Of a DNA stretch of 35,423 nucleotides, positions 16,245 through 33,319 are shown one piece after another. This DNA comes from an uncultured archaeon (GTDB taxonomy: Archaea > Asgardarchaeota > Heimdallarchaeia > Heimdallarchaeales > Heimdallarchaeaceae). The number at the start of each line of letters is the position of its first letter. The stretch's first letter is position 1. The DNA is taken from contig CAZHRF010000034.1 of the NCBI GenBank assembly GCA_964534625.1, positions 1 to 35,423 of the forward strand, written 5' to 3'. Both the position numbers and the translations under genes were made by a program. The notes beneath the pieces were generated by a model, which was not told the origin of the DNA, did not search any database, and saw nothing but the letters and a program-made list of their open reading frames with translations.

Positions 16245-16886
16245 CTACTTAATCCTTGTTGGAGGGCTCATTGTCGTCTTCAAATAGATTGTTTTGATAT
16301 TATGCTCTCCTTTCTCTAATTTTCTTTCAACAGCATTTACTAATGATTGAACATTTTCAACTATTTCTTCAATTTCCATATTTTCAGTGCCAACACGAGC
16401 ATGAATAACTGGTGATTGTCTAAGACGCAACTTAACTTTATGCTTGAATTCATCTAATATTGGTTCAATTGGTGCTGTAGGGGGTATTGGAGTTGGCATT
16501 TTTCCTCTAGGACCAAGATAACGACCTAAATATTGACCCACTAATGGCATTAAAGGAGCACTAGCAACAAAGAAATCATAATGTTTGGCTAAATTCTTGG
16601 CAGCATTTGGATTATTTCCAAATGATTTAAGATCTTGCTTTGTTACAATTTTTTCCACTCCTACTGTCTCTGCTTCAACTAATTGGCTACCTTCAGCAAT
16701 CACACAAATTTTTATGTCTTTCTGAAATTCATGTGGTAAAACCACATCAATTTGGAATCGATTTGTTGGATCTTTTAGATTAACATCTCTTAGGTTAATT
16801 GCAATGTCAACCGATTCAGTGAACTTCCGTTCGGGAGCATTAGTAAGCATATCTTCAACTAATTCTTTTAGTTGTTTTCTATCCAT
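16245..16886 (-). CDS. rpl1: 50S ribosomal protein L1 (uL1)
   Basis: RKFTESVDIAINL, LGPRGKMP, YLKTTMSPP. Confidence 0.98.
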   Translation of the reverse strand: MDRKQLKELVEDMLTNAPERKFTESVDIAINLRDVNLKDPTNRFQIDVVLPHEFQKDIKICVIAEGSQLVEAETVGVEKIVTKQDLKSFGNNPNAAKNLAKHYDFFVASAPLMPLVGQYLGRYLGPRGKMPTPIPPTAPIEPILDEFKHKVKLRLRQSPVIHARVGTENMEIEEIVENVQSLVNAVERKLEKGEHNIKTIYLKTTMSPPTRIK

Positions 16887-16897
16887 AAGTATCTACC

Positions 16898-16953
16898 TCT
16901 ACCGCTTCCGTTACTTCCAATGAATGGCTATATAACGGTCTTGCGCGGTTAGA
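16898..16953 (-). promoter_or_regulatory. structured 5' leader of rpl1-rplP0-rpl12 (candidate ribosomal protein autoregulatory element)
   Basis: mRNA ACCGC-GCAAGA-CCGUUA-...-UAACGG-AA-GCGGU nested stems abutting the GAGGU SD of rpl1. Confidence 0.6.
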
Positions 16954-17221
16954 ATTCAAGTCTTCAGCAAATCTTACATTTTTAAACTTTATTACTTATG
17001 ACTAGTACTTCCAAAATAGTGGTGAGAGTGTATGATTCTTGTGATAGGACAGATTAAAGTTTTCTTTAGATGGATAGAACCCTTGATTTTTTTCTTAATT
17101 CGGAAGTATTATAACAACAAAAAGAATTATCTTCTATCTAAAAGTAATCACATGTTAACAATGCATGAAAGTCATAAACTATTTTCTATCTTAAAATATG
17201 TGATAAAAATTTAAATTGCTA

Positions 17222-18127
17222 TCAAGGCAAGATACGATTAACAATTTTTTCAGGAATGAATTCCTCTAAATCATTGTATTCTTGTCCTATTCCTATAAAT
17301 AATATGGGCTTTTTTGTTATATGAGTAACTGAAACTGCAGCTCCCCCTTTTACATCTGCATCCATCTTATTGATTATAGATGAATCAATTCCAACTTTCT
17401 TGTAAAACATCTTTGCTTGAGATACCAATGAATTTCCTGTTAATGCATCGCCCACAAATATTTTAATATCGGGCTCTGTAACGCGACATATTTTTTGTAG
17501 TTCCATCATTAGATTTTTGTTATTTTCCATTCTACCCGATGTATCTATTAAGACTGAATTTATGTTTTTAGACATTGCATGATTAATTGCATCAAAAGCG
17601 ACGGCTGCTGCATCTGATCCATATTTTTGTGCAATAACTTTAATTTCTAACTTTTTTCCATGTTCTTGAAGTTGCTGTATACTACCTGCTCGATATGTGT
17701 CTCCTGCTGCAAAAATTACTGAATAATTATGATCTTTGAGATATTTTCCAATTTTAGCAATTGATAGTGTTTTACCAACTCCATTAACGCCAAAAAACGC
17801 TATTACTAAGGGGATATTGCTTTTTTGTGCTTGTTCAATTTTTTCTAAGAGATTAAACCGTTTTGGTGGCGTTAAAATTTCAACTAACACTTCATGAAGG
17901 GCTTCTATTATTTTATCCTTAGGATTAGTAAATCTCTTGTGTTCAATATCTTCTAGTTTTGGTCGTAAATCTTTAATGATTTTTTCTGCTGTTATAATAG
18001 CTACCTCATTCTTTACTAATATGTTTTTAAGCTCTGCTGAGAATTTTTCGATATTTTTGTCAGATATATCCCTAATCGTTATTTTTTTTACAAAATTAGA
18101 AATACTTTTCTTGAGATCATTAAACAA
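17222..18127 (-). CDS. ftsY: signal recognition particle receptor FtsY
   Basis: GVNGVGKT, DTYRAG, DTSGRM, KMDADVKGG, GIGQEYNDL. Confidence 0.97.
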   Translation of the reverse strand: MFNDLKKSISNFVKKITIRDISDKNIEKFSAELKNILVKNEVAIITAEKIIKDLRPKLEDIEHKRFTNPKDKIIEALHEVLVEILTPPKRFNLLEKIEQAQKSNIPLVIAFFGVNGVGKTLSIAKIGKYLKDHNYSVIFAAGDTYRAGSIQQLQEHGKKLEIKVIAQKYGSDAAAVAFDAINHAMSKNINSVLIDTSGRMENNKNLMMELQKICRVTEPDIKIFVGDALTGNSLVSQAKMFYKKVGIDSSIINKMDADVKGGAAVSVTHITKKPILFIGIGQEYNDLEEFIPEKIVNRILP

Positions 18128-32818: not shown

Positions 32819-33319
32819 ATGAGTAGTAATGAAGTAACAGTTGATCTTCTCGTTGATGGTGGTCGTGCCACACCTGGTGGTTCTATGGGTCCTGCTCTTG
32901 GACCAACTGGTGTAAATCTCAAAGAAGTTGTTGATGAGATAAATAAAAAAACAAAGCCTTACGAAGGAATGAAAGTTCCAGTAAAAGTAACTGTAAATAA
33001 AAAGTCTCGTACATTTGAATTGAGTGTGGGGATACCTCCTGCTTCCGCCTTAGTATTGAAAGAAGCTGGTTTGACAAAAGCCTCCGGTGAACCCAACACA
33101 AATATTGTTGGTAATATAACTTTTGAACAAGCAATAAATGTTGCTAAAGCAAAGTGGGATGATTTAACCGCTGCGTCTCTTGGTACTGCTGTAAAAGAAA
33201 TTTTAGGCACGATGGTTTGTATGGGTATAACCTGTGACAGCAAAGACCCAAGAAAAGTTCAAAAACAGATTGATGAAGGATCTTATGATGATTTGCTGGA
33301 AAAACATGATAAAAATTAG
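32819..33319 (+). CDS. rpl11: 50S ribosomal protein L11 (uL11)
   Basis: GGRATPGGSMGPALGPTGV, GMKVPV, PPASAL, KEILGT. Confidence 0.98.
   Translation: MSSNEVTVDLLVDGGRATPGGSMGPALGPTGVNLKEVVDEINKKTKPYEGMKVPVKVTVNKKSRTFELSVGIPPASALVLKEAGLTKASGEPNTNIVGNITFEQAINVAKAKWDDLTAASLGTAVKEILGTMVCMGITCDSKDPRKVQKQIDEGSYDDLLEKHDKN

Follow-up and report, generated by a model that had tools for sequence, protein, structure and literature searches.

Feedback control of ribosomal proteins by mimicry of rRNA is a textbook mechanism, which in archaea has, to our knowledge, been shown experimentally only in Methanococcus. The operon concerned (MvaL1, in M. vannielii and M. jannaschii) has the composition L1-L10/P0-L12/P1, the same as the one described here. 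Its autoregulation by uL1 is established (PMC3616713; PMC10931766), and the site, of classical strand order, is reported at the beginning of the coding region or just within it; an earlier note on our sequence likewise placed it inside the rpl1 coding region. The Escherichia coli L1 operator precedes rplK in the L11 operon (rplK-rplA) and is established both genetically and biochemically (references in PMC10931766). What uL1 recognises is H77 and the base of H78, two helices perpendicular to each other, together with the strands J1-2 and J2-1 between them, J2-1 being shorter in mRNAs (PMC5689012). The conserved core is given as GGGAG (PMC5689012, PMC7732827), and it is from these two papers and PMC3616713 that we have drawn our definition of the uL1 motif: two helices with conserved closing pairs, connected by a short linker, (G/A)A preceding a G, and by a longer one that ends in a purine. 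Operators of this type are further characterised by a weaker binding of uL1 than that of rRNA and by repression of translation. An element in the 5' UTR of yeast RPL1B (Roy et al., 2020) binds Rpl1 and mediates a more than 10-fold repression; it functions with GGAAG, tolerates either GA or AA and is dead with GGUUG (PMC7732827). Another type of rRNA mimic is the bacterial L10 leader (RF00557), which copies the kink-turn Kt-42 in the leader of the stalk-protein operon.

We have analysed a window of 35,423 nt from a Heimdallarchaeota (Asgard) MAG of 3.37 Mb, belonging to a family that includes Ca. Heimdallarchaeum endolithica. Ahead of its rpl1-P0-P1 operon there is a leader that is a real, conserved cis-regulatory RNA, most likely, judging from its sequence and pairing, a permuted variant of the well-known uL1 operator type with uL1 as its candidate ligand.

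The rpl1 operon and its leader

The three genes of the operon lie on the minus strand. The first, rpl1 (uL1; 16245..16886, PF00687, E = 6e-57), starts with the ATG at 16886 and is followed by rplP0 (uL10/P0; 15216..16235, PF00466 plus PF17777, RL10P_insert), the ATG of which is 9 nt past the rpl1 stop, and by rpl12/P1 (14899..15204, PF00428), 11 nt past the P0 stop. Both downstream genes have their own AGGUG. The gene upstream of rpl1 is ftsY by Pfam, ending at 17222. The rpl11 gene is found on the opposite (plus) strand at 32819-33319, 16 kb from rpl1, and in its AT-rich leader, inside the window, there is no L1-type junction, i.e., no second L1 site, which places uL11 outside the rpl1 operator here. 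A BRE/TATA-like promoter element, AAAG-TTTAAAAA, can be read from the sequence at 16979..16990 (minus strand). In 19 of 21 family members compared TTAAAA precedes the structure described below by 31 nt, counted to its first base (that of P1a), and the 23 nt between them are unconserved. From the usual archaeal spacing between TATA and start, we infer that transcription begins approximately 0-3 nt ahead of the structure, within a few bases of P1a.

The minus strand from 16953 to 16895 reads UCUAACCGC-GCAAGA-CCGUUA-UAUAG-CCA-UUCAU-UGG-AAG-UAACGG-AA-GCGGUAGA-GGU, identical to the transcription given in the earlier note. The MFE fold of 16954-16897 (minus strand) has two stems with an asymmetric 6/2 loop between them, the outer stem entering the Shine-Dalgarno sequence. 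This is the architecture that the same note had drawn (two stems, a GCAAGA/AA loop and an outer stem overlapping the start of the Shine-Dalgarno), and comparative pairing agrees with it. With an energy of -19.7 kcal/mol and a z of -1.77 (10 of 200 shuffles were as stable), the single-sequence fold is only modestly unusual taken alone.

The outermost helix, P1a, is formed by UUCUA (16950..16954) and UAGAG (16897..16901), the latter overlapping the Shine-Dalgarno sequence. Its pairs (13-17/66-70 in alignment A1) are kept in 17-18 of ca. 20 sequences, with the inner pair changing from A-U to G-U, and it is confined to family f1, while the junction is found class-wide. Between P1a and P1b there is a bulged A (16949), at least 90% conserved, with an alternative pairing to U16901; RNAalifold pairs A16949 with U56 rather than bulging it. 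P1b, similar to the base of H78, pairs CCGC (16945..16948) with GCGG (16902..16905). The two strands covary, being CCGC/GCGG or CCAC/GUGG in a 10:13 split (with variants CUGC, UCAC, and UUGC), and the closing C-G is invariant. The long junction strand, GCAAGA (16939..16944), would be the equivalent of J2-1 (loop B). It varies from 5 to 7 nt among relatives (e.g., GUUGA, GUAGA, GAAAAA, GUAUUA, GUUAUUA), but its last A is invariant and its first G conserved to at least 90%. The inner, H77-like helix P2 is made by CCGUUA (16933..16938) and UAACGG (16908..16913), with compensatory changes in four pairs. Its first (C-G) and third (G-C) pairs are invariant, and the second, either C-G or U-A, yields the CUG/CAG present in the genome's own H77. 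The P2 apex (16914..16932), 19 nt long here and containing a small CCA-UUCAU-UGG hairpin, is hypervariable in both sequence and length (7-19 nt in f1, 60-70 nt in f2 and f7). The short junction strand, AA (16906..16907), is the putative equivalent of J1-2 and gives GGAAG with its flanks. Its second A is invariant, and the first base may be A, G, or U across families.

The Shine-Dalgarno region GAGGUAGAU (16891..16899), which matches the archaeal consensus GGAGGUGAUC, starts 2 nt past P1b. Its GAGGU begins within P1a, ahead of the AUG at 16886, and GAGGNUGAU is kept in f1. One relative, Heimdallarchaeota YT1_002, has an intact junction, but the region of P1a and the Shine-Dalgarno has changed to GUGGUAGUUGGAUGAU, leaving it without GAGG and without the P1a pairing.

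Conservation across the Heimdallarchaeia

We have retrieved the rpl1 upstream regions of 30 relatives and built a structure alignment with 23 Heimdallarchaeia leaders. In this alignment 95.5% of the cells are paired and 8 of the 15 pairs change on both sides. None of 500 shuffled alignments reached the observed pairing and compensation, and registers slid along the alignment were only 32-61% paired. Unconstrained RNAalifold predicted the same two helices with the 6/2 loop and found 8 of 11 pairs to be compensatory, so that the covariation by which the earlier note proposed to judge its structure is indeed present. The positions that are invariant in the junction are the closing C-G of P1b, the closing C-G of P2, the G-C third pair of P2, and the last A of each strand. 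Unpaired bases of the junction are among the most conserved positions, while the helices covary in sequence.

A covariance model was built from 22 of the sequences. In the source genome it has a single match, at 16895-16956 (E = 8e-11), the runner-up being at E = 2.6. Across the class Heimdallarchaeia it matches 32 of 83 genomes, once in each, and all 30 matches that were retrieved, six of them from genomes outside the training set, stop 7-9 nt short of the rpl1 ATG. By eye, the permuted junction was seen in families f1, f2, f3, f4, and most of f7, where 4 of 11 leaders have a degenerate 3' half. No permuted motif was found in the 20 rpl1 loci examined from other Asgard archaea (19 families), nor in the rpl1 leaders of f5 or in one truncated f6 locus. 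A relaxed descriptor of the junction gave obvious chance matches in AT-rich leaders (f5 and some f7), and the descriptor was relied on only where the helices were GC-rich and recurring. An Rfam search of 16700-17250, at the gathering threshold and at E <= 10, retrieved nothing relevant; in particular L10_leader (RF00557), the model that the earlier note had proposed to try, did not match, and this model is a bacterial one. We have found no description of this leader in the r-leader survey of Eckert and Weinberg, in the paper on Asgard r-protein clusters, or by targeted searches. The proposal of an undescribed archaeal r-leader has held: the element, which heads the rpl1-P0-P1 message, is conserved, kink-turn-like, similar to rRNA and absent from Rfam.

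The situation is different in families f5 (12 loci) and f6, where P0 does not follow rpl1. In f5, rpl1 and rpl11 are divergently arranged, with the P0-P1 pair 3-4 kb away on the other strand (L142-L153, L173-L184; the f6 locus is L171). The P0 leaders of f5 have a conserved segment, ACAGGAGUC...AAGAUUUAACUG (noted also as CAGGAGUC...AACUG), that can be drawn, weakly, as a classical-order junction, CAG-GA-GUCU..AGAU-UUAA-CUG. In this drawing 72.5% of the cells are paired, no covariation was detected and RNAalifold predicts no structure. The segment could be a relic operator that was left with the promoter as rpl1 moved, a site for regulation of the stalk operon by uL1 in trans, or a pointer to P0 as ligand. 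With its split operon and the loss of the motif from the rpl1 leader, f5 gives a starting point for understanding how operators of this kind come and go. A separate case is a locus of f8 (L187; 1.4 Mb genomes), where between -60 and -10 before rpl1 there is a GC-rich CCUUAAC..GUUAAGG with CUGC...GCAGGAGGG, possibly a leader structure of rpl1 that is unrelated to the one described here.

Likeness to the uL1 site on 23S rRNA

To compare the leaders with known uL1 sites, we have written all of them in the same strand order, i.e., 5' strand of the H77-like helix, J1-2, H78-like helix, J2-1, and 3' strand of the H77-like helix. Arranged in this way, the source leader reads UAACGG-AA-GCGG..CCGC-GCAAGA-CCGUUA, a g7 leader CAG-GA-GCAGG..CCUGC-GUAGA-CUG, an f2 leader CAG-AA-GCGG..CCGC-GAAAAA-CUG, and an f7 leader UGACAG-AA-GCG..CGC-GUAUUA-CUGUCA. 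The uL1 site on the genome's own 23S rRNA is GUCAG-GA-GAU..GUU-GAUCUUGAAAUA-CUGAC and that of E. coli GGUGG-GA-GGCU..AGCC-GACCUUGAAAUA-CCACC (we verified 2120-2178 on the rrlB sequence, in which G2112, G2116, and A2169 are at their literature positions). The 23S rRNA of L001 (G000:C1:19540-22912) is 3373 nt long vs. a model length of 2987, which indicates insertions or expansion segments. The E. coli rplK leader is GGG-GA-GCCUC..GAGGC-GUUAUUA-CCC, and the candidate rpl1 leaders of Methanothrix are CCGUAG-(G/A)A-GAC..GUC-G(N)AGA-CUACGG. The invariant positions of the Heimdallarchaeia leaders are those common to the E. coli rRNA, the E. coli operator, the genome's own rRNA and the Methanothrix leaders. 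The core GG(G/A)AG and the closing pairs are present (CGG-AA-GCGG / CCGC-GCAAGA-CCG), the source leader reading ACGGAAGCGG, which contains GGAAG, and the element is where a uL1 operator is expected, in the rpl1 leader beside the ribosome-binding site.

What departs from the classical sites is the connectivity. In rRNA and in all characterised operators it is the H77-like helix that is open, with both ends of the chain passing through it, and the H78-like one is closed. The Heimdallarchaeia leaders have their H77-like helix, P2, capped as a hairpin instead, and both ends of the chain pass through the H78-like P1b. This reversal was found in all motif-bearing Heimdallarchaeia leaders, which is why we call the element a variant rather than a plain member of the type. 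By the comparison of strands, it is most likely a circular permutation of the classical uL1 junction.

The comparison with E. coli is the closest in the details of the junction, GG-GA-G / C-GUUAUUA-CC, since f7 leaders have C-GUAUUA-CU or C-GUUAUUA-CC, and one of them, GC-GUUAUUA-CC, matches the operator. Both elements resemble H77/H78 of 23S rRNA and both are found in a 5' UTR beside the ribosome-binding site. However, the E. coli operator has a capped H78-like helix and an open H77-like one, the reverse of what we see, and it precedes rplK instead of rpl1-P0-P1. The Methanococcus site differs in having the classical order and a reported location at or within the start of the gene. In Methanothrix the junction is identical (GA or AA on one side; GUAGA, GCAGA, or GAAGA on the other) and located directly before the AGG of the Shine-Dalgarno, but in classical order. 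Several Methanothrix loci (L064, L079, L081, L103, L107) have a second classical-order junction within the rpl1 coding region, at ca. +54 to +113 (GCCAGG-AA-GUUC..GAGC-GUGGA-CCUGGC), which recalls the in-gene site of Methanococcus and the dual sites of Firmicutes. The core string GGAAG is common to the Heimdall leader and the yeast RPL1B element (PMC7732827), although the latter belongs to a eukaryotic cap-dependent mRNA.

Two further observations concern the strand order. In Ca. Heimdallarchaeum (L015, L016, L047) there is, between -79 and -37 before rpl1, a near-copy of the 3' half of the motif, AAUGG-AA-GUGGU. Were it to pair with the 5' half, the resulting junction would have the classical order, and the region thus reads short-long-short. 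This single observation could be the footprint of a permutation by duplication, although the near-copy is probably located ahead of the transcription start. In g7 (L026, L030, L170) a conserved UCUAC(G) is found ca. 20 nt upstream of the motif, complementary to the long strand CGUAGA, and it is possible that the two form an alternative hairpin excluding the operator fold, that is, a two-state leader.

Candidate ligands and mode of control

We consider it likely, from the arrangement of the leader and its resemblance to rRNA, that uL1 represses its own operon by occluding the Shine-Dalgarno sequence. The putative operator would occupy the 5' terminus of the rpl1-P0-P1 mRNA and would copy H77 (as P2), the GA linker (J1-2, the 3' AA), the base of H78 (P1b), and a shortened loop B (J2-1, the 5' GCAAGA), rpl1 being the presumed repressor gene as well as the first regulated cistron. 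When in excess over free 23S rRNA, uL1 would bind the leader junction and clamp P1b and P1a, the 3' strand of which enters the Shine-Dalgarno only 2 nt away. Placed ca. 21 nt from the AUG, inside the footprint of the 30S subunit, the protein would block 30S binding. In every family the Shine-Dalgarno adjoins or overlaps with the 3' strand of the H78-like helix (GCGG-UAGAGGU, GCAGGAGGUGA, GCGGAGGU). Binding of uL1 would therefore lend stability to the helix in which the Shine-Dalgarno is held; the distance from junction to AUG is 14-24 nt across families. P0 and P1 would follow either by coupling or by a lowered occupancy of the mRNA. The gaps of 9 and 11 nt and the AGGUG motifs of the two genes make coupling, as reported for Methanococcus, conceivable. 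As the connectivity is opposite to that of every characterised L1 operator, recognition by uL1 is here an extrapolation. Our tentative suggestion is that uL1 reads the local three-dimensional junction whatever its connectivity, and perhaps that its feedback through the 5' UTR is continuous from Asgard archaea to eukaryotes, a continuity to which the GGAAG core of yeast RPL1B might point.

The ligand preferred in the earlier note was P0. Alone or with P1, it would recognise in the leader a copy of Kt-42, the kink-turn from the base of the GTPase-associated centre, in parallel to the L10(L12)4 leader of bacteria. Bacterial uL10 does recognise a K-turn both in rRNA and in its own leader (PMC10931766). 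The strand topology of our leader (an outer C-stem and a bulge in the 5' strand) is moreover the native one of Kt-42, shared with the bacterial L10 leader, and so this reading needs no permutation argument. The likeness of AAGAC to Kt-42, also proposed in the earlier note, is real for the source genome, whose own Kt-42, CAGC-GAAGA-C(A)AUGAG...CUCAU-C-GA-GUUG, is close to CCGC-GCAAGA-C in the leader, but it does not extend to the relatives, which have GUUGAC, GUCGAC, GCUGAC, or GUAUUAC. The Kt-42 signature itself (GA-CA-helix / helix-C-GA-G) can be read in the 23S rRNA of E. coli and of this genome, but none of the leaders has it. They all show a Watson-Crick C-G at 3b-3n, directly past the junction, and a short strand that is mostly AA or UA. 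The bacterial leaders, with signature GACA/CGA and uL10(L12)4 as ligand, require canonical G.A/A.G pairs. A canonical kink-turn has a 3-nt bulge followed by tandem sheared G.A and A.G pairs (1b = G, 1n = A, 2b = A, 2n = G). Among the Heimdallarchaeia the G at 1b is kept by f1, g7, and g13; most f7 leaders and g10 have U there, g11 and one f4 leader have C, and f2 and g9 have A, a variability that is incompatible with a G.A/A.G K-turn. Position 2n may be A, G, or U across families, the bulge varies from 3 to 5 nt, and the source leader, with a 4-nt bulge and A.A at 2b.2n, is not a canonical K-turn. Neither does the leader have the make-up of a uL10/P0 leader that mimics Kt-42: no conserved element similar to H43/H44 was detected, the apex of P2 being hypervariable. 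In E. coli this type of junction is the L1 operator, and uL10 uses a different leader. In f5 the conserved junction-like sequence has stayed with P0 and not with rpl1, which would favour P0, but that element has no structural support. Altogether, we regard P0 as an improbable ligand.

L7Ae binds many simple K-turns, and the junctions of f1, g7, and g13 fit the outline of one (a C-stem, a bulge of 3-4 nt, GA, and a helix, with GA or AA opposite), so that the leader might be bound as a generic kink-turn, like the archaeal 5' UTRs under L7Ae feedback. The earlier note had named both L1 and L7Ae as alternatives to P0. L1 has turned out to be the best fit, by virtue of the permuted H77/H78 junction, but we consider L7Ae very unlikely, since the positions of the core sheared pairs (1b and 2n) are the least conserved of the junction and the motif is found once per genome, solely before rpl1. 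No such element was seen in the genome's own rpl7ae leader when it was checked for a K-turn. It could also be argued that no protein is involved, the leader being a hairpin that hides the Shine-Dalgarno or stabilises the 5' end (responding, e.g., to temperature or affecting decay), with a likeness to the uL1 site that is coincidental. P1a pairs with part of the Shine-Dalgarno, the structure is at the predicted 5' end, and the motif is small enough for relaxed pattern searches to match AT-rich leaders by chance. Nevertheless, a simple hairpin would hardly be expected to conserve its unpaired junction bases while the helices covary, nor to keep the same junction in distantly related families whose P2 inserts differ widely, and P1a is exclusive to f1 while the junction is class-wide. 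We therefore give little credit to a protein-independent role and favour repression by uL1.

If uL1 does act through this leader, feedback by rRNA mimicry would extend to the Asgard lineage nearest to eukaryotes. The leader would also be a natural rewiring, in which the same junction is built with the opposite connectivity, and as such a probe of what uL1 recognises. It would represent a rare and directly testable case of a riboregulator rebuilt by permutation. In addition, it provides a compact and specific RNA model with which to annotate the genomes of a class that currently has no Rfam entry for it.
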